Translations under genes and position numbers: made by a program
Part shown: positions 45,640 to 63,533 of the stretch, piece after piece
Layout: every line of letters starts with the position of its first letter
Numbering within the stretch: position 1 is the stretch's first letter
The notes under the pieces: model-generated
What the model saw: the letters and a program-made list of their open reading frames with translations, nothing else
Database searches by the model: none
Told to the model about the DNA's origin: nothing
DNA from: Bdellovibrionota bacterium
GTDB lineage: Bacteria > Bdellovibrionota > FAC87 > UBA2466 > JACKAF01
DNA: 64,000 bases
Direction: 5' to 3'
Assembly: GCA_041391485.1 (NCBI GenBank)
Contig: JAWKNY010000002.1
Span: 128,245-192,244 of the forward strand

Positions 45640-45828
45640 AAAAAGGACGCACCTTTTCCCAACTGTCCCCAAAATTAAGCAATTGTATTCATTTAAGTAA
45701 TCTTTCATAATAAACGCGCCCAAGCGGTGACACTTAATGATGCATTGCATTTAGTATAGAGAATTGCTATCGATTTTGGCTTATTGCCAAGCCAGAGCGG
45801 CAAACGCTGGTGGAGGAGTTCAAAAACT

Positions 45829-47769
45829 ATGTCTTCAAAAAAATCGGGGGGCGCTTTCACCCCTTACGTACCCGCTTCAAAAGATATTCCGGAAGTCACC
45901 GCACGCGCGGTGATCTTGGGAATCTTGTTGGGCATTGTTTTGGGCGCGGCCAACACTTACCTCGGCCTCTACGCCGGAATGACAGTCTCAGCGTCGATTC
46001 CTGCAGCGGTTATCTCGATGGGAATTCTCCGCGGTCTTTTGAAACAAGGCACGATCCTCGAGAACAACATCGTGCAAACGATGGCGTCGACGAGTGAGTC
46101 GCTGGCGGCGGGAGTTATTTTTACGGTCCCCGCTCTTATCCTTACTGGCGCTTGGCACAAGTTTCATTACGTACCGGCAACGCTCATCTGTATTACGGGC
46201 GGTCTGCTCGGCATTTTGTTCATGATCCCGCTGCGCCGATCACACATCGTGGAAGATCAGGATCTCACCTTCCCGGAAGGCGTGGCGTGTGCAGAAGTTT
46301 TGAAGAGTGGTGAAGAAGGGGCGGGCAGCGCCAAGTACCTTTTTTACTCCATCTTTGCGGGAGCGCTGCTGAAGTTCCTCACGGCGGGTACCAACCTGGT
46401 AAAAGGTGCCGTTGAATGGGCCTGGGGAGTTGGCAAAACTGGATTTTATTTTGGTACGGATGTCTCGGCAGCCCTTCTCGGCGTTGGTTACATCATCGGC
46501 TTTAACATCGCCGCCCTCATGATGCTCGGTGGCCTTATCGCCTGGACCGTGGCACTCCCGATCATGGGAGCCACCGGTAATGGAATCGAAGGCGAGCTGA
46601 TGGATTGGTTCTGGACGAACTGGAGCACCAAAATCCGCTATATGGGCGTCGGCGCCATGATCGTTGGCGGCATTTGGTCCATTATCAGCATCCGAGACGG
46701 CATTAAGTCCGGCTTGAAAGAGGCTCTCGTGGGTTACAAAGAAGCGGGTGGCAAGGTAGCAAGCAAGCTACTTCGCACAGACGTGAACATGGATCAGAAG
46801 CACATTCTGCTTCTGCTCATCCTCACCACGATCGCAATCTTTGGCCTCTACCTCCAAATGATCCACGCCCCTATCGCGATTAAGCTTGGGCTGACTTCCA
46901 TCTCTACCCTAGCGATGGTGGTACTGTCCTTCTTCTTTGTGGCGGTAGCGAGCTACATCGTGGGCTTGGTGGGTTCTTCTTCTTCGCCTGTTTCTGGCAT
47001 GACGATTTGTGCGATTCTCGCTACGGGTGGCTTGCTTCTACTCGCGAGAAAGTTTCTTCTCAGCCAAGGTATCGCGCTTGGAGAAATGGCTTTTATCACA
47101 GCCACTCTAGGCGTAGCCGGCGTTGTCTGCTGTGCGACTTGCACGGCGGGTGATATTTCGCAGGATCTGAAAACCGGTTACATCCTGGGCGCGACACCCA
47201 AACGTCAGCAATGGATGGAAGTGGTCGCGGCCATCATCCCGTCGCTAGTAATCGTCCCGGTGCTTATCGTGCTCAACGAAGTGTACGGAATCGGAACGGG
47301 TGAGCCGGGTTCGCTCAAAGCCCCTCAGGCAACCTTGTTTGCAAACCTGGTGAGCGCCCTCTTCACGGACAAGGAAATCCCTTGGTTCTTTGTGGAGGTG
47401 GGTGCAGCCGTAGGTGTGGGCATCATCATCATGGACCTGGTGCTCAAGAAAATCGGTTCTTCCTTCCGCATGCCCATCATGGCGGTGGCTGTAGGTATTT
47501 ATCTGCCGCTGACGCTGTCGACCCCGATTTTTATCGGTGGCATCATTGCAGCGATGATGAGTGAGCGTCGTGGAGACACGGATCGCGGAACGCTTTTCGC
47601 CTCCGGTCTGATCGCGGGCGAGGCCATTATCGGTGTCGTTTTGGGAGCAGTGATTTACTTCGGTAAGGACGTGTTCCCGCTAGCGTTGGGACCCGGTTCG
47701 GACATGCTATCCGTTGCCGTATTCGCAGCGATGGCGTTCGTGCTCTACCGAGTCGCGAAATCGAGCTAG
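45829..47769 (+). CDS. OPT family oligopeptide transporter
   Basis: About 646 aa from ATG 45829. TPYVPASKDIPEVTARAVILGILLGIVLGAANTYLGLYAGMTVSASIPAAVISMGIL is a typical OPT N-terminus. Many TM helices. Confidence 0.9.
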   Translation: MSSKKSGGAFTPYVPASKDIPEVTARAVILGILLGIVLGAANTYLGLYAGMTVSASIPAAVISMGILRGLLKQGTILENNIVQTMASTSESLAAGVIFTVPALILTGAWHKFHYVPATLICITGGLLGILFMIPLRRSHIVEDQDLTFPEGVACAEVLKSGEEGAGSAKYLFYSIFAGALLKFLTAGTNLVKGAVEWAWGVGKTGFYFGTDVSAALLGVGYIIGFNIAALMMLGGLIAWTVALPIMGATGNGIEGELMDWFWTNWSTKIRYMGVGAMIVGGIWSIISIRDGIKSGLKEALVGYKEAGGKVASKLLRTDVNMDQKHILLLLILTTIAIFGLYLQMIHAPIAIKLGLTSISTLAMVVLSFFFVAVASYIVGLVGSSSSPVSGMTICAILATGGLLLLARKFLLSQGIALGEMAFITATLGVAGVVCCATCTAGDISQDLKTGYILGATPKRQQWMEVVAAIIPSLVIVPVLIVLNEVYGIGTGEPGSLKAPQATLFANLVSALFTDKEIPWFFVEVGAAVGVGIIIMDLVLKKIGSSFRMPIMAVAVGIYLPLTLSTPIFIGGIIAAMMSERRGDTDRGTLFASGLIAGEAIIGVVLGAVIYFGKDVFPLALGPGSDMLSVAVFAAMAFVLYRVAKSS

Positions 47770-49921
47770 TTGCCCGGATTCAAGAAGAACGGGTAAGCAC
47801 TGACCTCGGTCACAACCGGGGCTTCAGGTTTCGGGAAGCGCCAGCTACGCACGCGAGAGACAATACAGTTTTGAAGCGTGCTGTCACCGACGGTGCTCGA
47901 AGCGACCCCGGCAAACGACACGATCCCGTTGGGCTGAATCGTAAACTGCACCACCACTTTACCGCGTAAAGACGGGTTGCGGCGTCGGGCGGATTCGTAA
48001 CACTGACGGATCTCCCCACGGTGCTGGTTTACAATTCTGTTGATGACGTCTTTAGGAAGACCTGAAAGCACCTGAACGTTTTCGGAAACGACGCTCACAC
48101 TGTGCTCGCCTTTTTGCCCCAGTCGACCGGGCCCTTGAATGCCTTCGCCGATCCCATCGCCCGACTGGCCACCACCGATACCCTTGGTGGAAGGACCGTC
48201 GATACCGATCGTATTGCCGCCGCCGCCAACCTCGACCCCTTTAAGGCCTTTACCAGCAGCGCCGCCCGTGACCGTGCCACGCGAGGAGCGTAGACCTTTG
48301 TCAAAGGCGTCCACACCCGTTTCGGTGTCCATCATCTCTTTGAGGTTCTTCTTGAGACTGCTCTTGTTGAAAGCCTCAAGTAGACCCACCTTCTTCACAG
48401 TCTTGGCGTCCACCACTTTGCGCTGGGGCTTCGGCTTGAAACTGGCTTGTCCGCCTGCTTGGCTTGCGATTTTTGTTCCTTCGGTTTCTCCTTGGGAACT
48501 GTTTCTGCAGGCTTGCTCGCCCGAGCTTCAGGTTCCTTGGCCTTGGCTCCGCCGCCACTCTTAGAACCTGCCTCTTGCGGCGTGGCCTTGGGCTGGACCA
48601 AATCAGGAATCTTCGGACGCTTTTTGATAACAATCTTTGCAAAGCGTTCGGGAATCATTTCAATGGTAACCGGCTTGGGTTCGGGAACGAACATCAGGCC
48701 AAATATCATGAAGAAAAACAGCAACGCGGAGCTGATCATCGTACGGAGAAGCAGACGATCCCGATCAAACAACGGCGCCGGGCGAATACGCGGGGCGGGC
48801 TTCACGTAAAGAACGAAGAAATTGATTCTGCCGATGCTAAGTTTGGCAAAATCGTCGCGACGCAGCGGCAAACGAAAGTAGTTGCCATAGCGCTTCACGA
48901 ACTTCTCTTCCTGCAAATCTTTTAGCGAATAGATCTTATCGCGTGCACGCACGGTCCCGCTCATGTCGTCCGTAAACGCGAGGTACGTAATTCCGTCTTC
49001 TTCGATCGTAATGAGCGGAAACTCGTCGGGTATCCCTTCGCTCGGAATCACATAGTGACTCTTGGGGCTCTCGCCTACCGTAAGTACTACGGGGTCCACG
49101 TAGTTGGACACATCAAGAATGTGATCGCCCCACAAGGCCGTTACTTCCAACTCTTGAGCGTGCTCCGGGAGTTCGAAAGCGGTCTCAAGCTCTTCGGGCA
49201 AGACATCATCGTCACCATGCCGTGAACGGCGATCGGCAATGCGTCTTTCCAAGCTTGTAATATCAAAAACTCTTCTGTCCCCACGTCGGCGCTGGCCAAC
49301 CCGGCGTTCCCATTCACGATCGCCTCTGCGATCGACTCCGCTACGGCGTTCGGGTTCCGAATCCGGCGGTCCTTGGGTCGGAGTACTACGACGTTCTCCA
49401 TCGCGTTGCTCGATGCGTCGTTCCCCATCACGGCGGTCTTGGAGGCGTTTCTCGTCGGGAAAAGCGTCACGCTTGCGGCGTTCGGTGCGCTTTCGACGTT
49501 CCCCATCACTCGCACGGGCGGGTGCCGGATCAATATTAACCTGGGTGGCTTCGCCGTCGAAGGTGCTGTCTGCGCTCGCTGCGGCGATAGGGGTGGGTCG
49601 ACCCGATCCTTTTTCGATAATCAGCTCAGCGAATCCCAAGCGAATGCGGTCGCCAACTTTCAACTTAGCTTCAATCACCTTCTTGTCATTGACGAAGGTA
49701 CCGTGGCTGCTCGCTAGATCGGTGATGGTTAACTCGTTCCCGCGAACTTCAATCAAAGCGTGGATGCGCGAAACCCTGGGATCGTCGATCCGCACGTCCG
49801 CAGACAAGATGCGGCCCAAAACGATCTTCTCTTTAACGAACTCTGCGGTGAAGAGTACCTTACCGCCATCGCCAAGCAGGTCGAGTCGAACTGGAAATGT
49901 TGAAGAAGCCTGAGCTTCCAT
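47766..49921 (-). pseudogene. FHA domain / single TM / Pro-Lys linker / AgmX-PglI (TonB-C-like) C-terminal domain protein, GltG/NfsG-like; frame broken once (ORFs 48395-49921 and 47766-48416)
   Basis: FHA motifs GRILSADVRIDDPRVSRIHALI...SSHGTFVND. The C-terminal domain reads INRIVNQHRGEIRQCYE...GKVVVQFTIQPNGIV...WRFPKP. The frames swap at 48438-48446 within the Lys/Pro linker. Confidence 0.75.
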
Positions 49922-49972
49922 AGGCTAAAGCCCGCCGGTTAAAGGGTTTTATTCGCTTTAGGGAGAGGAGTC

Positions 49973-50287
49973 TTAATGCTGAATTCTGGCTGAATCGACC
50001 ACTTCCGCGTCAAAGTTCTTGCGGATGCGGATGATTGTACGGCCTTTGACCCCTTGGATATTAGAAATATAAGATCCGCTGGGTCGCTTGAAGAGACCTT
50101 CAATGTCAGCCCCTTCGAAGTCGTACGTGTTCTTCTTCTTATACTTTACCGTCGTGCCGTCAGAGCGCTTTTCAATGACGTAATCACCCTTGGAGCGACG
50201 ACTCTTTGTCTTGCCTTTTTCAGCAAAAACAAACGGCGTTAGCAGTGATGAAAGTACCAAGATGCTTAAACCAAATTTTCTGATCAC
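49973..50287 (-). CDS. small secreted protein in the GltF/NfsF position
   Basis: 104-aa ORF with signal peptide and motif YDFEGADIEGLFKRPSGSYI. Assigned by position in the cluster only. Confidence 0.45.
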   Translation of the reverse strand: MIRKFGLSILVLSSLLTPFVFAEKGKTKSRRSKGDYVIEKRSDGTTVKYKKKNTYDFEGADIEGLFKRPSGSYISNIQGVKGRTIIRIRKNFDAEVVDSARIQH

Positions 50288-50352
50288 TGCTTACCTCCAG
50301 TTCCACGAACTGAGGCGACAGAAGTATAAAAAGACACCTCTCTCTTTATCCC

Positions 50353-51227
50353 TTATCGCCACTTTTGAATGAGTTCCTGAGCTTTTGCGGTCTGTTTTCC
50401 GCCTGCTTGGACGTAGCGCAGCAACATGTCGGCTGCTAGCTTAGGCTGGTTCAGACGGTTCCCCAATAAAATCCCATTGTTATACAGTACCGAAACGGCA
50501 TTGGGGTGCTGTCCAAGAAAGTCCTCATAGACCGATCGGGCGGAATCAAATTGGCCTAGAGCCTCAAGCGCCGCCCCACGGCCCAGCACCGCATCTTCAA
50601 AACCCTTGTCGCGGTCCAAAGCCCGCACAAAGGCCCGCTCGGCGTCGGCATAACTCGCGCTCTCCAGGTAGAGCGCCCCCAGATTGACGAGTGGGGCCGC
50701 AATCGGGGGATCGGCGTCCGCCGCTTTCTCAAAGTAAGCAATGGCCTGAAAACGCTCGCCGTCTTTGAGAGCCATCATTCCAAGATTATTGAAAAGCATC
50801 GACTTCCAGGCAAATCGGTCGTCTTTCTCCAACTTCTCAAAGAAGTATTTCGCTAGATCCTTGCGGTTTCGGCGTAAATGAAACACGCCGAGCAAGAACG
50901 CGGCGCGAGTCTCCTGTGGGTGCTTTTGCAGAAAGGCCTTGATCTTGGCCCCGGCTTCGTTGGTACGTCCCGCCGCATCGAGCAAGGAGAGGTACTCCAA
51001 ATAACTGTCCGTATCGGTCTCGAAACTGCTTTTAAACGCTCCAGTCTATCCAAAACCATGCGGCGATCCGCACGGTAGCTGTTGGAGTAACTCCCTTCCA
51101 ACCAGGCAAGGTAACGCATGGGATCGTTCTGCGTGCGCGAGTTTGAGCTGGTACTGGTACCCGATCCCGTTGGCGTGCTCGAACAAGCTGCCAAGAGTCC
51201 CAAGCAGAGCAACGCTGCATACTTCAT
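50353..51227 (-). pseudogene. TPR lipoprotein (GltE/NfsE-like position); frame broken once (ORFs 50853-51335 and 50353-51000)
   Basis: Start ATG 51227 gives lipobox MKYAALLCLGLLAACSS. After ...RMVLDRLER the sense continues in another frame (FKSSFETDTDSYLEYLSLLDAAGR..., then TPR repeats). The junction is at 51028-51045 (TTTAAAA). TAATG overlap with the upstream stop. Confidence 0.6.
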
Positions 51228-54200
51228 TAGAAAGTACCCCCTAAATTTCCCCAACGGGTCGTCCAATACGCTGGCTGCGGGAGCAGCCCCGACGGCGTGA
51301 CGTCTTTGTCGTTCTGTGCCAGATAGGTACGGCACTTCTGGACGTAATTCGATGCCACATGAAATTCCACCGCTTTGGTTTTGCAGAGCTGGGCCAGCTC
51401 CTTTGCACGCGTTTCGTACGGCGCCACAAACTCGCCTTCCAATGTCTTCAGTTGCGCTTCCAACTCTTTGCGCTGGGCCCCTTTGTACGCGTTAGGAACT
51501 TCAATCGAGCGATAGGCTTTCACAAAGTCCGCATAAGCCATGGCGCGTTCCGACAGCGCTGCCACACCCCACTCCGGTTCGCCAAGCGCGACGATCTTCT
51601 CATAGTCCGCATCCAGCTTCTTGAGAGACGCCTGCTTCTGCTTCAAATTGCTCACAAGGCGGGCGGGTGGTAACCGCAATTTGAGTCGTTCATAAGCCGT
51701 TTTTTGCGGTTCAACTTTTACGAAATTTGCTTCTGCGACATATTTCGCATCAGAACCAAATGAGCTCAAGTTCAATTGTCCGCGTGTAATGCTGCCAATC
51801 TTGGCAAGGGTCTGCTCTCTATCGCGTTTACGCCCATACGTCCCATACAAGTCCGCGAGCTTCCCAAGTAAACCGACTCGTTCCGCCAACGTCGCTGCCT
51901 GATTGGAGAGCTGAGTATAAATCTCAGCCACCTTGCGCCAGTTGCCACTCTTTCGATAAAGCTCAGCCTCGCTGAGCTGGATGTCCTTTCGTTCTTTGGC
52001 GTTTGGTCGTGCCGTCGCTAGATACTTTCCGTACAGCTTCAGAGCCTTGGAATTCTGTCCAAGTACCTCGGCAAATACCGCTGCGTTATAGAGCGCGCTC
52101 TTCGCTTGTGGATCCTTCGGGCTTTTCTCGGCAAACCGCTCATAGAGATTTTGTGCGGTTTCAAAATCATAACCCTCTTCAGATTTCTTGGCCTGAAGCA
52201 ATGTTAGGCGCGTGTTGTACTCGTGGTTTGGGTACTTTTGCATGAACAGCTTCGTCACTTCCGATTGACGAGCCACGTTCTGAGTCTTCTCATACGTAAC
52301 CACTGAGTTGTAGAGAGCTTGCTCTGCCAACTTTCCTTTAGGATTGGACCGGTAGTAATTGTAATAAGCGTCTCCGGCTTTCTCCCAGTCCTCGTCCTTC
52401 TCAAATTTCTCAATGGTCTTAAAGCCAATCTGATCCTGGAAGGAACGCATTTCGGTACGGAATTTCGTGTCTCCCAGATCGGATTCATTGGCGAAGGAAC
52501 CCGCGGCTACTCCAAGCGAAGCGTAGTCCTTATTAATGTTGTAGATATCCAATAGCAAGTGCGCGGAAGTCACGGCACTCTTATGCTTGGGGTACTTGGT
52601 CGATATCTCTTTGAAAATCGGAGCCGCTTTTTCAAAGTGGTGGTAGCGGTAGTAGATCCCCGCAATACGGAACTTCACATCCACCGATCGCTTGAACTTC
52701 GAGTAGTTGGACAGATAAAACTCAGACACTTCGATGAAGCGCTTCTCCCCTTCAGGGATTTCCATCCGCTCAAACTTGTTTTCCTGGCGTTCTTGTTTGG
52801 TAAACCGCTTAACCTTCGAATTTGCCGTCAGCTGATCCACCGCCAGCAGAGCGTTGTACGCCGCCTCTTCCGCGAGTTTATCCTTGGGCGGATTCTTGGC
52901 GATCACCATATAACGATCCGCAGCGGGCAAGAACTTCCCTTGTTGGTAGAGAATCTCGGCTTGGTAGAAAACCAATTTCCTTCGATCCGGGTGACTCGGG
53001 AAAGCTTTTGCTACGGCATCATAGAGTTCAAGGCCGTACCCGTAGAAGAATTTCTTTTTAGACTTTTGCGCCGTCCGATGAAAGAAGTAAGCGGCATTCG
53101 TACTATCCTTGCGTAAGGATTCCAGCTTATCCTTTGCAGCGTCCTCATCCTTAGATAACCACCGACGTGCCCAGTCCGATTCCTCACCGTACTTTTGGAG
53201 AGCCAGAACCAAACCGCCAACGGCTTCCTTGTTTTCGCCCTGACGCATGTGGGACTCGTAGATCTTCATGGCGTACTCTGGGCCTTCAAGAGAGTCGTCG
53301 AACTTACTCAGAAGCTTCTTATGGGCCTGAATGGAAGCATTACCCTGCGCGCGATTGTGGACGGACTCGGCGATAAGCTTCAACTTCTCGTACGCCTCTT
53401 CTTCTCCGAGCACCTTCTTGTAGTAATCAAAGGCTTCGTCGACCTTCCCGGCGTCGGCGTAAAACAACGCTAAGTCGTTCACCGCTTGCTCGCGCAGATT
53501 GAATTTCAGTTTCTCCTTGGACCCTTCCAACTTCTCGACAACCTTTTGCATGTTCGCAAGCGCCAGGGAAGATTGCCCGAGGTTCAATTGGCACCACGCT
53601 ATTTTGTAAAGTGCGTAGTCGGCGAGATCCGAATCTTTTCTTCGCAGGATGGTCTGGTATTTGCCCAGAGCTTGAGCGAACTTTTGGTTGTCGAAGTAAA
53701 AATCGGCCAAAACCAAGATCGCTTCGTCGTACTTCCGGCTTCTAGGGTAGGAGCGAACCAATCTTTCGAGGTAAGCCGCTCCCTTTTGCGTGCGGCCGTA
53801 CTCCAGGTTTACAAAGCCCAAGAAGTACAAGACCTCGTCCATTCGAGGGTGACGCGGGTACTCGCGCTCCAGCCGAGTGAGCGTTTCCAAAGCTCTGGTC
53901 AGGTAGCGCTTGGAGCGCCGGGTATCCATCTTAGGAGCTTTTTTACCCTTTTCCCCGGCCGCTTTAGCTTTGTCGAATTCTTCAAGCTGCGTGTTGTACA
54001 TTTCAAGTTCATGGAAGTTGAGCTCCATGTACTTTTCCGTGTACAGCTGGCCCAATCGTAAGAGGACGTTGTCCCGATTCTTCGCATACCCCGAGGCTAA
54101 TTCCTGGCGTAGCAGCTTGATCGCCTGATCCCGACGGGCTGTCAGAAAGGTCTGCTTCTCAAAAAGGTACTTCTGCGTATCCACCGAAGGACTTTTGGCT

Positions 54201-54415
54201 TCACGCTTACCGGCCGCGATGGAGAATTTTTTCCCGCTGAAGGTAAGATTCGCCTGTGGAATCTGCAAGTTCTCCTTGCTTGGCGGCAAGGAAAAATACT
54301 CGTCGTCTTTGGCGGTCGCAACACCCGAAAAAAGTAGGATCAAGAGTAGGACCGTCGCCCGCAGACTAGTCGACGCAAGAACTTTCTGTTGTGTAAACAT
54401 AACTTCCAAGCTCAT
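51227..54415 (-). CDS. large TPR-repeat protein, GltD/AgmU/NfsD-like
   Basis: About 1060 aa from ATG 54415 (or 54400). Signal peptide ...LRATVLLLILLFSGVATA. TPR-like repeats throughout. Size and position match AgmU-type proteins. Confidence 0.7.
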   Translation of the reverse strand: MSLEVMFTQQKVLASTSLRATVLLLILLFSGVATAKDDEYFSLPPSKENLQIPQANLTFSGKKFSIAAGKREAKSPSVDTQKYLFEKQTFLTARRDQAIKLLRQELASGYAKNRDNVLLRLGQLYTEKYMELNFHELEMYNTQLEEFDKAKAAGEKGKKAPKMDTRRSKRYLTRALETLTRLEREYPRHPRMDEVLYFLGFVNLEYGRTQKGAAYLERLVRSYPRSRKYDEAILVLADFYFDNQKFAQALGKYQTILRRKDSDLADYALYKIAWCQLNLGQSSLALANMQKVVEKLEGSKEKLKFNLREQAVNDLALFYADAGKVDEAFDYYKKVLGEEEAYEKLKLIAESVHNRAQGNASIQAHKKLLSKFDDSLEGPEYAMKIYESHMRQGENKEAVGGLVLALQKYGEESDWARRWLSKDEDAAKDKLESLRKDSTNAAYFFHRTAQKSKKKFFYGYGLELYDAVAKAFPSHPDRRKLVFYQAEILYQQGKFLPAADRYMVIAKNPPKDKLAEEAAYNALLAVDQLTANSKVKRFTKQERQENKFERMEIPEGEKRFIEVSEFYLSNYSKFKRSVDVKFRIAGIYYRYHHFEKAAPIFKEISTKYPKHKSAVTSAHLLLDIYNINKDYASLGVAAGSFANESDLGDTKFRTEMRSFQDQIGFKTIEKFEKDEDWEKAGDAYYNYYRSNPKGKLAEQALYNSVVTYEKTQNVARQSEVTKLFMQKYPNHEYNTRLTLLQAKKSEEGYDFETAQNLYERFAEKSPKDPQAKSALYNAAVFAEVLGQNSKALKLYGKYLATARPNAKERKDIQLSEAELYRKSGNWRKVAEIYTQLSNQAATLAERVGLLGKLADLYGTYGRKRDREQTLAKIGSITRGQLNLSSFGSDAKYVAEANFVKVEPQKTAYERLKLRLPPARLVSNLKQKQASLKKLDADYEKIVALGEPEWGVAALSERAMAYADFVKAYRSIEVPNAYKGAQRKELEAQLKTLEGEFVAPYETRAKELAQLCKTKAVEFHVASNYVQKCRTYLAQNDKDVTPSGLLPQPAYWTTRWGNLGGTF

Positions 54416-55841
54416 CTTCCCAGTATTCTCCCTGAAAGGGCCAGTAGTGGTAACCGGCAAAAACTTTGGTTTCAACGTCCGTAACTCTCTTCGCAGGCAA
54501 GCCTTTGCTCTTCTCGATGAGCTCTTTCTCGCCGGTGATAATCTCAACTTTTAGGTAGTTCGCTTGCTCACGCTGCGCTTGTAACTGACGAAGGTGCCGT
54601 GAGTGGATGGACTGTAGGTCCTTACCCACACGAGCGCTAATATAATTAATGACCTTGTCCAAGGTCTCCTTGATGGAGTTGATTGTCTTCATCCGAGCAA
54701 AAACGCCAAGACGCATGCGCTCTTCGCGGAGTAAGTCTCTGACTTTCAGATCGTGGCTGATCCCGGGGTCGCGATCAATCACGCTGGTGTACGCACGGTT
54801 CAGTCCCGCCTTTCGCGTATAGGCGTTGAAGAACGCCATGGGGCTATCCAAAACAGTTTTCTCTTTTTCCATCGCGCGAAGGATGGGATCGTAAATCTCA
54901 AAAAACTCGTTCAGCGTCCGGCGCATCTCTTCGTATTTGCAAAGGGCAAAGAGGATCGTGGCCTTCAGGACGTACGCTTCACCCACCAAACTTTCTCTAT
55001 AAAAAGGAGAAGTCAGCGTATGCAGGTTCCCGAGTGAAACCGTGGAATCGTTCATGCGCATCAACGGCCAGCTGGCCTCGAGCAAGACATCCAACCAGAA
55101 CGGTGAGCCGCTGGTGAAACGCGCAAAAGCTTCGATGGACGCTTCCAATTTTCCGCGAGAGTACAAGGACCGAGCCAGGTTTAGTTTAGCCAGGTCCTCC
55201 ATCACATCCGATCCGCGCTTGTTCGCTGAAAGCTGCGCCACTTTGTTGAAGTAGACGATCGCGTCGTTGTAGTCCTTTTTTCGCGTGGCGATGACGCCGA
55301 GATAGAAGAGCGCCTTTAGATAGAACTGACTTTCTGGATTCACCGATTTCAAACGGCTTTCGGCGGCTTTGAAATTATTCTCATTGTAATGGTGCACGCC
55401 AGCGGCGTAGTGGACCATGTGGTTGAGTTCTTGAGGGATGTAAGCACCGGGAAGTCTAACGACGAGCTTACCCACTCGGTCTACAAGATTGAGCCGATCC
55501 ATAATAACAACGGCGTTCTTGATGGCCTTTCCATATACCGCTTTGTTCTTGGGGTCCGGCTTGAGCAGGACCATGCGGAAAGACCGGTAAGCGGAAAAAT
55601 AGTAGCCCAGTTCGTAGAGCGCCAACCCTTGATAGTAGTAGCTAAGATTGCGATCGCTAACAGACCTAGCACCCAGAATAGCCTGATCGAAGTAGGTAAC
55701 TGCATCGCGCATCTTTCCGGACTCAAAGGCGCGCTTGCCGCGTTCCAAAGAATCCGAAGCGGCGTAAAGATTCGCCGTAAGGCTTAGCCCCAACAGCAAG
55801 CCGATGGAGTATTGCTTTAATGATGGCTTCATAGTTTTCAT
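54366..55841 (-). CDS. TPR-repeat periplasmic protein, GltC/NfsC-like position
   Basis: 491-aa ORF with signal peptide MKTMKPSLKQYSIGLLLGLSLTANLYAAS and TPR-like repeats. ATGA overlap with the upstream gene. Confidence 0.6.
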   Translation of the reverse strand: MKTMKPSLKQYSIGLLLGLSLTANLYAASDSLERGKRAFESGKMRDAVTYFDQAILGARSVSDRNLSYYYQGLALYELGYYFSAYRSFRMVLLKPDPKNKAVYGKAIKNAVVIMDRLNLVDRVGKLVVRLPGAYIPQELNHMVHYAAGVHHYNENNFKAAESRLKSVNPESQFYLKALFYLGVIATRKKDYNDAIVYFNKVAQLSANKRGSDVMEDLAKLNLARSLYSRGKLEASIEAFARFTSGSPFWLDVLLEASWPLMRMNDSTVSLGNLHTLTSPFYRESLVGEAYVLKATILFALCKYEEMRRTLNEFFEIYDPILRAMEKEKTVLDSPMAFFNAYTRKAGLNRAYTSVIDRDPGISHDLKVRDLLREERMRLGVFARMKTINSIKETLDKVINYISARVGKDLQSIHSRHLRQLQAQREQANYLKVEIITGEKELIEKSKGLPAKRVTDVETKVFAGYHYWPFQGEYWEDELGSYVYTTESSCVD

Positions 55842-56524
55842 CCGGGCATCTTGGGTAGCCAGAAACTGAGTGAGGCAGAGATCGTAAAGTTACTCCGGAG
55901 GCCCGTGCCGTCGGAGCTGGTTTCTTGGTAAATGTAGTTACGAAAATCAATACGCAAGGAAACCCACTCCCTAAAGAAGGCGCGGATACCGATTCCTGGA
56001 TAAAAGGTGAAGTAATCGTGCAAATCTGTTTTCGCGATTCCAACCCCGAGCGCTAGGAAGGGTTCTACGTAGACAATCCAACGCGAAAACGTGGCCATTT
56101 TTCCGTACCAGGGCGTAAGCTGAATCCCAGCACTTCCCACCAGTACCAGATTCTGAATCTGGGGGCGGATGTCCGGGTTGTTCACGTTGTTAATGTCTTC
56201 GGTGAAGCTGCTCAAAAAATTCTTGGTGTAGATGAAGTTCGCTTCCGTCGCAAAGGCGTCACTCCAATGCAGAGTGTAACCAAAGCCGCTGGTGAGGGTG
56301 CGACGAATCGTACCGAACGGGATCCCCCCCAAAGAGACCGGCGTAAGTTCGTGCCGCCATTCTTTGCGGGTGTACTTTTTCTGAACCGCAATCACTTCGC
56401 GATTGGGAATCGTCCCAATCTCTTCGAGTTGCTTTTCAATGAGGTTTTCATCCGCCGTGGCAAACGCGCAAAAACACACGAGAGCGGCGGCGATACCACG
56501 GAAGAGTTGTTTTGATAAATGCAT
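55838..56524 (-). CDS. outer-membrane beta-barrel protein, GltA/B-NfsA/B-like
   Basis: 228-aa ORF with signal peptide. Alternating aromatic/hydrophobic strands and a C-terminal ...FTISASLSFWLP consistent with a small OM barrel. Confidence 0.65.
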   Translation of the reverse strand: MHLSKQLFRGIAAALVCFCAFATADENLIEKQLEEIGTIPNREVIAVQKKYTRKEWRHELTPVSLGGIPFGTIRRTLTSGFGYTLHWSDAFATEANFIYTKNFLSSFTEDINNVNNPDIRPQIQNLVLVGSAGIQLTPWYGKMATFSRWIVYVEPFLALGVGIAKTDLHDYFTFYPGIGIRAFFREWVSLRIDFRNYIYQETSSDGTGLRSNFTISASLSFWLPKMPG

Positions 56525-56793
56525 AAAAATAAAGAGTTATTGGAGCGGCGCGCCGCTTAGCCCCCACCGGGAGCTGGGAAGTCTGGAACGCCAAGTATTA
56601 TTATATCGCTAGCAACCGCAAGAATCACATGGGTTCGCGGGTTTTTTGGTCTTGCTTTCGGGACGCGTTACGCTATATTTTTTAGCTAGTATGCAGCGAG
56701 CCTTTCTGCGAAATTTACCTTCCTTTTGCCAAACCCACACTACAAGCGCGTCATGACCTTGGCTTCGGCTTACCTGACGCGATTTATTGATTC

Positions 56794-61099: not shown

Positions 61100-63533
61100 T
61101 GCTACTCTCGCTGAACTGGCTAAAAGACTATCTATCCAAACAAGATATTAAGATTAATGCCAAAGACCTCGCCGAAAAGCTCACGATGCGAGGGCTTGCG
61201 GTGGAAAGAATTTCGAGTGGCACTCGAGGCCTCGATAACGTGGTGGTGGGGACGATTGAGAAAATCGAAAAGCACCCCAACGCCGATCGTTTGCAGGTAA
61301 CGCAGGTACGAGTTTCGAACGAACCCCATGCAGAAGTTCTGCAGATCGTCTGTGGCGCAAAGAATATCGCCGAAGGCGACATCGTTCCCGTTGCCTTGGT
61401 GGGGGCCGTGCTTCCTGGCGATCTTAAGATTAAGAAGTCCAAGATTCGCGGAGTGGAATCCAGTGGGATGCTCTGCTCCGGACGCGAGCTAGAAATCTCG
61501 GAAGATTCTGACGGAATTCTCAAGCTTCCTAAACACAGCACAATCGGGCAACCACTTGCGCGTCTTTTGGGATCAGACGACGTTCTTTTGGAGTTTGATT
61601 TAACCGCAAACCGAGGCGACTGCCTGTCGGTATTGGGACTTGCGCGGGAAATTTGTCCCGTATTGAAAACGCGCTTGCGCGACCCCAAACCCCCTCGTTT
61701 TAAGAATTCCAACCACCGCACTTCCGCCATCGTAAAAGTGGAAGTTGAGGACAAGGACGTGTGCCCGCGCTATGTCGCGCGTGTCATCGACACGCTAAAG
61801 GTCACCGAAAGTCCTGACTGGATCAAACAGCGTTTGAAAACGGTGGGCATTCGCCCCATCAACAACATCGTCGACATCACGAACTTCGTCATGCTCGAGT
61901 ACGGGCAGCCACTGCACGCCTTTGATCTGCGGCGGATCGAATCCGGCGGCATCAAGATCGGGCGCTGTGACAAGACCATGGAATTTGAGCTGCTCAACGG
62001 CGAGCGCGTCCTGCTTGAACCTGGGGATATCCTCATCAAGGACGGCGACCGACCGATCGCGCTAGCGGGCATCATGGGCGGTGCGAACACCCAGATCGAA
62101 AACGACTCGACCAGCATCCTTCTTGAAAGCGCCTGCTTTGACGCCACTCAGATCCGCAAAACGGCAAAGCGCTTGAACCTGCACACAGATTCTTCAAAGC
62201 GCTTCGAGCGGGGCATCGACATCGAAGGGGTGAACCGCGCCAGTGAACGCGCGGCCGCCTTGTTGCGCGATAGTTTTGAAGCCAATGTCTACCACCCGCC
62301 TACGGACACGAATCCGGAGCCGGCAAAACCTCGGTCTTTTGCCGTCGATATGCGAGACATTCGACGTATCACCGGGCTCTACAACCTGTCGCCAGAGAAG
62401 GCGACCGATTTGCTGGATTCCATTGGCATCCCCACGCACAAGCGCTCGACGAATATTTTTATCGTGAAGCCGCCTAGCTTCCGAAACGATCTGGAAAAGA
62501 GCATCGATATCGTGGAAGAAGTCGCACGCCTGATAGGCTACGATACGATTCCGGAACGCTACCCGTTTTCCACCGCGCCCTTTGATACGTACCACGATCC
62601 GATTTATGAGTTTGAACGCAGAGCCCGCACTCTGCTGGCGCAGCTGGGTTTGCGCGAGACCATCCAGTACAGTTTTACTTCCGAAGCAACGCTCATCAAG
62701 TACGGCGCCCACTCGGACAGCTTGATTAAGCTGCAAAATCCCATCAGCGAAGAATTCAAGGTCATGCGTCCAAGCTTGCTGCCAAGTCTCCTGGAGACCT
62801 ATCTCTACAACAAGAACCGCCGCAGTGAAGGGCAGCGATTGTTTGAGGTTGCACGCGCGTACGAAAAAGACGAAAGCAACTCGGAGACGAACGCTAAAGA
62901 AACCCTATGGGCTGCGGGACTCTTGTCGGGCAATACGCTTCAAGAAAGCTGGCGCAAGAACGGCGAGAAAATCGATTTCTACTACGGAAAAGGCTTGGTA
63001 GACATCCTCGTGCGACAACTGTCCACGGTTTATCTTGCTTACGAGAATTCTCGGGATAGTAAGCTTCTGCACCCGCACCGAAGCGCCTCCCTCAAGCTGG
63101 GCCTAAACACGGTCGGCTACGTCGGCGAAGTGCACCCGTACATCCGCGAGCAAGTTTTGGAAACGCATGATTCGGTAGTACTGTTTGAACTGAACCTGGA
63201 TGCGTTACGCAAGTATGAACGCAAAGGCGTCCACTTCAAAACACCGTCTCGTTTCCCGGCGGTAGATATCGATATTGCTATCGTCTGTGACAAATCGCTC
63301 ACCAGTCAGGCCCTGATCGAAGCGATCAAGTCCGATGGATCCGATCTTCTTGAAAGTGCACGCGTCTTTGACATCTACGAAGGCGAAAATATTCCGATGG
63401 GAAAAAGAGCGTCGCGTTCCACCTTTCCTTCGTTTCCAAGGATCGTACTTTGGAAGAACATGAGGTTACGGAACTGCGTGACAAGATTGTCAAAGGACTT
63501 GAAAGCAAGTACTCCGCGCAACTCCGCGCCTAG
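61099..63533 (+). CDS. pheT: phenylalanine--tRNA ligase beta subunit, C-terminal frameshift in this assembly
   Basis: tRNA-binding domain (HPNADRLQVTQV), B3/4 and B5 domains. The track ORF tail after IPMGK is nonsense. A 1-nt correction at GGGAAAAA 63399-63406 restores GKKSVAFHLSFVSKDRTLEEHEVTELRDKIVKGLESKYSAQLRA and a TAG at 63531-63533. Confidence 0.95.

Follow-up and report, generated by a model that had tools for sequence, protein, structure and literature searches.

A six-gene Glt/Nfs-type envelope operon without a linked motor in a Bdellovibrionota genome

Glt-type machines are bacterial 'focal adhesion' motors, and the discussion of how they transmit force across the periplasm still relies on models. 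In Myxococcus xanthus they are represented by the Agl-Glt machinery (gltA-K plus aglRQS; Luciano et al. 2011, PMC3169522; PMC11761067) and by the Nfs system (nfsA-H; Wartel et al. 2013, PMC3858216), a colinear paralogue for spore-coat assembly that has no motor of its own. The aglRQS motor genes are unlinked to both M. xanthus glt clusters and also drive the motor-less nfsA-H (PMC3169522, PMC3858216). Bdellovibrio bacteriovorus glides with several 'expanded core' sets that include no GltH, I, J or K, and strain HD100 carries four complete and two smaller gliding operons, for example Bd0828-0838 (PMC3169522, PMC9140294). Here we describe a cluster of this family in a 64,000-nucleotide stretch of DNA (the window) from the metagenome-assembled genome (MAG) of an uncultured bacterium of the same phylum, Bdellovibrionota, comprising 3.46 Mb in 44 contigs and estimated at 81.6% completeness. 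Six minus-strand genes of the window were confirmed by sequence comparison to encode GltB-, GltC-, GltD-, GltF- and GltG-like proteins, together with a probable GltE-like lipoprotein, in the Glt/Nfs gene order. We consider it likely, with a probability of roughly 0.6, that this operon supplies the transducer half, spanning the envelope, of a surface machine of the Agl-Glt/Nfs type, with an unlinked motor and probably serving gliding. The operon and its genes, listed in the direction of transcription, are:

47766-56524, minus strand: six-gene Glt-type envelope operon, tightly packed
55838..56524, minus strand: GltB-like outer-membrane beta-barrel (228 aa, signal peptide, TIGR04565)
54366..55841, minus strand: GltC-like periplasmic TPR protein (491 aa, NF033756)
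51227..54415, minus strand: GltD (AgmU)-like large periplasmic TPR scaffold (1062 aa from the ATG, assigned by blastp)
50353..51230, minus strand: GltE-like TPR lipoprotein (halves 50853-51230 and 50353-51000; lipobox LLAAC)
49973..50287, minus strand: GltF/CglF-like small secreted protein (104 aa, NF033764)
47766..49921, minus strand: GltG-like inner-membrane transducer (halves 48395-49921 and 47766-48416; NF033760, NF033768, Pfam FHA)

The six minus-strand open reading frames (ORFs) lie where a first-pass annotation of the window had placed them, and both gene junctions described there are present in the sequence: ATGA at 55838-55841, in which the stop of the barrel gene overlaps the gltC-like start, and TAATG at 51227-51231, which joins the gltD-like stop to the gltE-like start. 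The 3′ end of the gltC-like gene likewise overlaps the start of the gltD-like gene (54366 versus 54415), and the product of the gltE-like gene begins MKYAALLCLGLLAAC, a lipobox.

To identify the products, the window proteins were scored with Pfam and NCBIfam models and compared by blastp with a verified Myxococcales gltA-H cluster. The genome providing this yardstick was picked via its GltG, which reaches 617–619 bits on the GltG model, and its locus carries a genuine gltA-B-C-D-E-F-G-H cluster with two OMP_myx_plus barrels and a D-position protein of 1240 aa. Scored against the NCBIfam cut-offs, the yardstick proteins gave 607/450 (GltC), 209/225 (GltE), 101/90 (CglF), 619/650 (GltG) and 119/70 (CglE, the GltH protein; all in bits/cut-off). 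Another Myxococcales locus, L050, was dropped as a yardstick because it proved to be merely a divergent 'core complex'. With Pfam models the window products gave TPR and FHA matches along with weak signals for a barrel and for TonB_C, and nothing more specific. With NCBIfam, the barrel scored 85.8 bits on TIGR04565 OMP_myx_plus (cut-off 60); it also matched the Myxococcales cluster by blastp at 7e-16, and pairwise comparison gave 5e-19 to GltB and 3.6e-9 to GltA, so that by its sequence the protein is a member of the GltA/GltB/NfsA/NfsB family nearer to GltB. It is the sole OMP_myx_plus protein in the genome, one copy rather than a GltA+GltB pair. The GltC-like protein matched NF033756 (E=5.1e-40, 137.8 bits, under the equivalog cut-off of 450) and the verified GltC (blastp 1.4e-27), and the GltF/CglF-like protein matched NF033764 (E=4.6e-13, 49 bits versus a cut-off of 90) and the verified GltF, also of 104 aa (blastp 1.1e-7). 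The two parts of the GltG-like protein matched NF033760 at 2.2e-37 (N part) and 1.1e-42 (C part), with 129 and 147 bits against a cut-off of 650, and its two halves found the verified GltG by blastp at 1e-23 and 3.6e-15. In addition, its tail scored 103 bits on the AgmX/PglI model NF033768 (cut-off 40), and its FHA domain was recognized by Pfam at 2.9e-19.

The remaining two products called for other evidence. NCBIfam has no GltD model, and true GltD also matches only YbgF-type TPR; the GltD-like protein was therefore compared directly with the verified cluster, where it aligned with the D-position protein over 1040 of its 1062 residues (blastp E=2.9e-54, 23% identity). It carries a signal peptide without a lipobox. 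Named AgmU/GltD proteins were also sought by profile search, without an informative name among the matches. The GltE-like protein reached E=1.5e-14 and 54 bits on NF033758 (cut-off 225), where generic TPR models score alike, and blastp found no match to true Myxococcales GltE at 1e-3; it is identified as GltE mainly by its position after gltD, together with its lipobox and the GltD-GltE fusions described below. The assignment to the Glt/Nfs family and the Myxococcus gene order, both proposed in the first-pass annotation, are thus supported by the family models and by blastp to the verified cluster, the similarity being specific to Glt/Nfs for every product except the GltE-like one. The annotation had also allowed that the large TPR protein and the FHA protein might resemble GltD and GltG only in generic TPR and FHA domains; the GltD alignment (E=2.9e-54) and the GltG models (2e-37 and 1e-42) argue against this.

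Comparison with the described systems placed the cluster within a kind of system already known, of which it is a distant class-specific orthologue group. It shares with M. xanthus Agl-Glt the GltB-G homologues in the same order, the succession of FHA, FHA-like, transmembrane (TM) and TonB-type C-terminal domains in GltG, unlinked motor genes and the presence of MglA, and it differs by an identity of only about 23–37%, by one barrel in place of the GltA+GltB pair, by GltH, which was not found here, by a GltD that is not a lipoprotein and by a GltG cytoplasmic linker made of (D/E)RR instead of acidic Ala/Pro sequence. Like Nfs, it is one colinear A..G cluster without its own motor, for which a TolQR-type motor is expected in trans, and counterparts of I, J and K are missing from the cluster. 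Unlike Nfs, it contains neither a second barrel nor H and shows no link to sporulation or to an exopolysaccharide locus; moreover, Nfs is a recent Myxococcales duplicate, whereas the window GltD lies in a separate class-specific clade. B. bacteriovorus HD100 resembles the present genome in having several Glt-like sets, MglA and PilZ or second-messenger links near paralogous sets; GltH is missing there and was not found here, where GltJ is represented by tail matches only and GltI and GltK were not searched. HD100 belongs, however, to another GTDB class, and the window orthologue group is single-copy, always motor-less and class-universal. The more remote Tol-Pal and TonB-ExbBD systems also use a TolQ/TolR-type channel to drive a TM protein with a Pro-rich periplasmic linker and a TonB-C-like domain, and the YbgF/CpoB partner of Tol-Pal is resembled by the TPR partner here, but GltC, D, E and F, the barrel and the cytoplasmic FHA are Glt-specific, and this genome has separate tolQRA-tolB and exbBD.

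The conservation of the cluster was followed through a genome scan for GltD with a narrower alignment (A2), the wide alignment (A1) being too diverse. The closest GltD proteins, 91–94% identical, came from MAGs labelled Bdellovibrionales or Bdellovibrionaceae, and about 40 more matches came from Bdellovibrionota and 'Pseudobdellovibrionaceae' MAGs. In at least 29 related species a complete locus keeps all six genes in the same order (29 such loci, 40–60% identity), and 9 further loci are cut by contig ends; no AglRQS-like gene was found within 10 kb at the related loci, including one located on a 2.98-Mb contig. A GltC orthologue was present in all 37 species of the GTDB class (49–59% identity, rising to 96% in a same-genus genome), while a sample of the phylum contained GltC-like genes, often several, in 161 of 200 genomes, with identity outside the class not exceeding 31%. 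In a tree of GltD proteins, the placement that the first-pass annotation had recommended for the AgmU-like protein, the window protein fell in a fully supported class-specific clade with a paralogue of the same genome as its sister, and true Myxococcales GltD fell in a different clade.

In 10 of the 33 orthologous loci (L016, L020, L021, L026, L028, L029, L034, L035, L038 and L039), GltD and GltE are encoded by a single ORF of 1273–1332 aa, and the GltE part of the fusion has lost its signal peptide and lipobox. The M. xanthus model predicts GltE bound at the GltD C-terminus (PMC11761067), and the natural fusions provide independent support for this predicted contact.

The GltG-like protein consists, in order, of an N-terminal FHA domain, a (D/E)RR tract, a second FHA-like domain, a TM helix, a Pro/Lys linker, a Gly-rich stretch and a TonB-C-like AgmX/PglI tail. 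An AlphaFold model built on an intact 97%-identical orthologue, with an alignment of 26 orthologues, predicted a beta-sandwich at residues 10–105 of that orthologue, a largely disordered region at 114–240, a confident all-beta domain at 250–375, the TM helix at 389–410, disorder at 420–620 and an alpha/beta domain at 620–715. FHA folds led the structural matches of the whole model, at its N-terminal domain. When the central domain was modelled alone (predicted local distance difference test score, pLDDT, 86.5), almost all of its PDB matches were again FHA domains, with E values of 1e-3 to 1e-2 and probabilities of up to 1.0, which equals the match level that has been reported for the 'central FHA' domain in GltG of M. 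xanthus. The published GltG has the same architecture; its TM helix together with the central FHA touches the AglR pentamer, and GltD is the partner of its TonB-type C-terminal domain (PMC11761067).

The (D/E)RR tract occupies window positions 49205-49510, or GltG residues about 138–240, with 11 [DE]RR motifs within about 100 residues, and was modelled mainly as disorder with two short helices. It is kept in 31 of 31 full-length GltG orthologues, with the invariant block RRVFDITSLERRI.DRR.R..DDD.LPEE, whereas a true Myxococcales GltG has no [DE]RR motif and carries an acidic Ala/Pro linker in its place.

The window contains no gene of the MotA/TolQ/ExbB family, as the first-pass annotation had noted, and all six such loci of the genome are located elsewhere. 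Since aglRQS is unlinked in M. xanthus, a cluster without a linked motor is nothing unusual in the Glt/Nfs family. Three of the six loci are ordinary: tolQ-tolR-tolA-tolB on contig C10, motAB on C5 and exbBD on C16. The other three follow the AglRQS layout, in which one TolQ-like protein is combined with two TolR-like ones, each with the conserved TM Asp:

C24:31244-32871: motor set (i), downstream (by about 3.5 kb) of a second Glt-like set that has no barrel
C2:42435-44146 (with its barrel, a four-gene unit to 45089): motor set (ii), barrel-TolQ-TolR-TolR, on the same contig as the cluster and about 130 kb away from it
C36: motor set (iii), with a third AgmX/PglI-tail protein encoded after it and many frame breaks in its TolQ-like gene

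The genome also encodes MglA (C12:73397-74044), recognized by its P-loop, a TVPGQ motif and a Pfam Arf match of 27.5 bits (cut-off 22.3); no MglB gene is adjacent to mglA. The search for aglR/Q/S and mglA suggested in the annotation therefore yielded three TolQ+2xTolR sets and MglA, which favours the first of the two possibilities raised there, a motor encoded elsewhere, over a reduced core module. GltH/CglE was not found in the genome, where the best match reached 22.9 bits against a cut-off of 70, and the GltJ model matched only the shared tail of the GltG-like proteins.

The three candidate sets differ in their distribution. The TolR of set (ii) was detected in 36 of 37 species of the class and in 28 of 28 high-quality genomes, the one miss being a 73%-complete genome; set (i) occurs in 13 of the 37 species, and set (iii) gave two clear matches among them. 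Sets (i) and (iii) are too patchy to be the general partner of the cluster, which leaves set (ii) as the best candidate and, judging from this co-occurrence, as its most probable motor; the ordinary Tol or Exb channels could also play this part. Set (ii) consists of a MotA_ExbB protein, two ExbD proteins and the barrel, has no Glt gene nearby and adjoins yebC-ruvCAB, and its four genes were adjacent in 5 of 5 relatives examined. The putative 247-aa barrel, which gave sub-threshold matches to OMP_b-brl, OmpW and PagL, was considered as a Glt barrel and rejected, showing no similarity to GltA, B, H or the window barrel. In the relative with the 2.98-Mb contig, several stops or frame changes break up the TolR of this orphan unit (G023:C4:2921625-2922156); either the motor is decaying in that species, or the long reads have introduced indel errors.

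The second Glt-like set, at C24:20800-32871, has its own motor and contains a PilZ-like protein, a fusion of 1447 aa that resembles GltC and GltD, a CglF-like protein, and a GltG-like protein in which the N-terminal FHA is missing. At C13:69729-74038 lies a third GltD-GltE fusion protein, 1299 aa long, and a small ORF upstream of it appears PilZ-like by eye, which hints at cyclic-dinucleotide control.

The homology, gene order, domain architecture and candidate motors observed here can be combined with protein contacts that we infer from the M. xanthus model (PMC3169522, PMC11761067). GltG would reside in the inner membrane, where its TM helix and membrane-proximal FHA-like domain would dock on a TolQ/TolR-type proton channel, and proton flow through the TolQ5-TolR-TolR channel would act on it. 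The Pro/Lys linker of GltG would span the periplasm and its TonB-like tail would bind GltD, with GltE bound at the GltD C-terminus. GltF would bridge GltG and GltD to GltC, and GltC would couple to the single GltB-like barrel, proton flow thereby being converted to movement of outer-membrane and surface components. The most likely output of such a machine would be surface gliding, as in B. bacteriovorus.

Two of the alternatives to this reading question the identity or the integrity of the cluster itself. Two of its six genes are broken in frame, as would be expected of a decaying, non-functional cluster in which the gltE and gltG frameshifts were genuine pseudogenising mutations. Alignment located a 1-nt deletion near 51021 in the gltE-like gene, after about 70 codons (intact orthologue 289 aa), and another near 48438 in the gltG-like gene (intact orthologue 718 aa). 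Both orthologues are, however, intact in two close relatives at 91–94% protein identity (L007 and L011 for gltE), the breaks are single-base, and both halves of each gene retain 90–96% identity to the intact orthologues. Breaks of the same type affect essential or conserved genes: pheT, the essential gene for the beta subunit of phenylalanyl-tRNA synthetase, shifts frame close to its 3′ end relative to the intact orthologue (window 63399-63411) within the same 23 kb, and tolB (C10), ruvB (C2:48127-49166) and the tolQ-like gene on C36 are split too, in keeping with an indel-rich assembly. Because pheT, ruvB and tolB are broken as well, the gltE and gltG breaks are best read as assembly indel errors, as the first-pass annotation had it, the operon is taken as functional, and genuine decay is highly improbable. 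It is even harder to credit that the genes form a generic Tol-Pal/TonB accessory cluster, composed of YbgF/CpoB-like TPR proteins and a TonB-like protein and only superficially Glt-like. GltD and GltC do match YbgF/BamD-type TPR models and the GltG tail is weakly TonB_C, but the OMP_myx_plus barrel and the AgmX/PglI tail score above their cut-offs, GltC, GltG and CglF match their models at E values of 1e-13 to 1e-42, GltD aligns with true GltD over its full length, the gene order is that of glt and nfs, and the ordinary tolQRA-tolB (C10) and exbBD (C16) loci exist separately.

A more serious alternative, although we regard it as unlikely, accepts a Glt/Nfs-type machine and gives it a use other than gliding. 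It might move or organise a polymer on the cell surface in the manner of Nfs on spores, help in attaching to or invading prey, or maintain the envelope. Both the module and the orphan motor occur in single copy and class-wide, which would fit a housekeeping role too; core complexes also occur in non-gliders, Nfs being a colinear, motor-less paralogue with a spore-coat function (PMC3169522, PMC3858216). GltH, essential for gliding in M. xanthus, was not found, GltJ gave tail matches only, and GltI, GltK and CglB were not searched. Against a non-gliding use stand the 'expanded' gliding-linked parts of Luciano et al., a GltA/B-type barrel and GltF, which are present here, the MglA encoded in the genome, and B. 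bacteriovorus itself, which glides on an equally reduced gene set (PMC3169522).

Several observations also weigh directly against a gliding machine powered by an unlinked motor. The GltC, GltE, CglF and GltG scores are far under the NCBIfam equivalog cut-offs, which makes these proteins distant homologues rather than orthologues of the M. xanthus proteins, and with an identity to Myxococcales proteins of merely 23–37% function is not confidently transferable; the GltE-like similarity is no better than that of generic TPR proteins. M. xanthus gliding requires GltH-K, and the present genome has one GltA/B barrel, no GltH that could be found and a GltJ match restricted to the tail, GltI, GltK, CglB and AglZ not having been searched. 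At 81.6% completeness of the genome, such absences are provisional. The choice of set (ii) as the motor derives from the co-occurrence of two near-universal units, and an unrelated universality of both would look identical. A bolder proposal, which we hold to be doubtful, is that the universal single-copy 6+4 genes, made up of the operon and the four-gene unit of set (ii), plus MglA would constitute a complete minimal Agl-Glt surface motor without GltA, H, I, J and K, in which the (D/E)RR tract of GltG (RRVFDITSLERRI-DRR) might act as a lineage-specific cytoplasmic docking or regulatory element replacing the GltI/GltJ/AglZ platform.

Little is added in principle, since Glt-like sets were already known from relatives of Bdellovibrio in 2011. 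What is now defined is a compact orthologue group conserved across a whole class, and with it come three leads: a candidate dedicated motor picked by co-occurrence, the GltD-GltE fusions and an Arg-rich cytoplasmic GltG tract that Myxococcus does not have. The reduced system could serve as a simpler model of the machine, if a cultured member of the group exists.

Two further features border the operon:

45784-47769, plus strand: OPT transporter gene, convergent with gltG
56525..56793: divergent intergenic region between the operon and thrS, probable promoter and leader

The OPT transporter gene lies beyond the gltG end of the cluster, where the first-pass annotation had placed it, and the palindrome CTAG at 47766-47769 forms the overlapping stops of gltG (minus strand) and the OPT gene (plus strand), so that no space for a terminator is left between these convergent genes. 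A scan for consensus promoters and terminators detected nothing exceeding chance inside the operon or upstream of it, and an Rfam search of the conserved upstream region gave no match. The intergenic region 56525-56793, which probably holds the promoter and leader of the operon, is 90% identical to that of two relatives, compared with about 80% for the aligned, mostly coding DNA of the cluster, and it contains a 60-nt fully conserved block, a TATAAT near 56597-56602 and the GC palindrome GCGGCGCGCCGC at 56544-56557.

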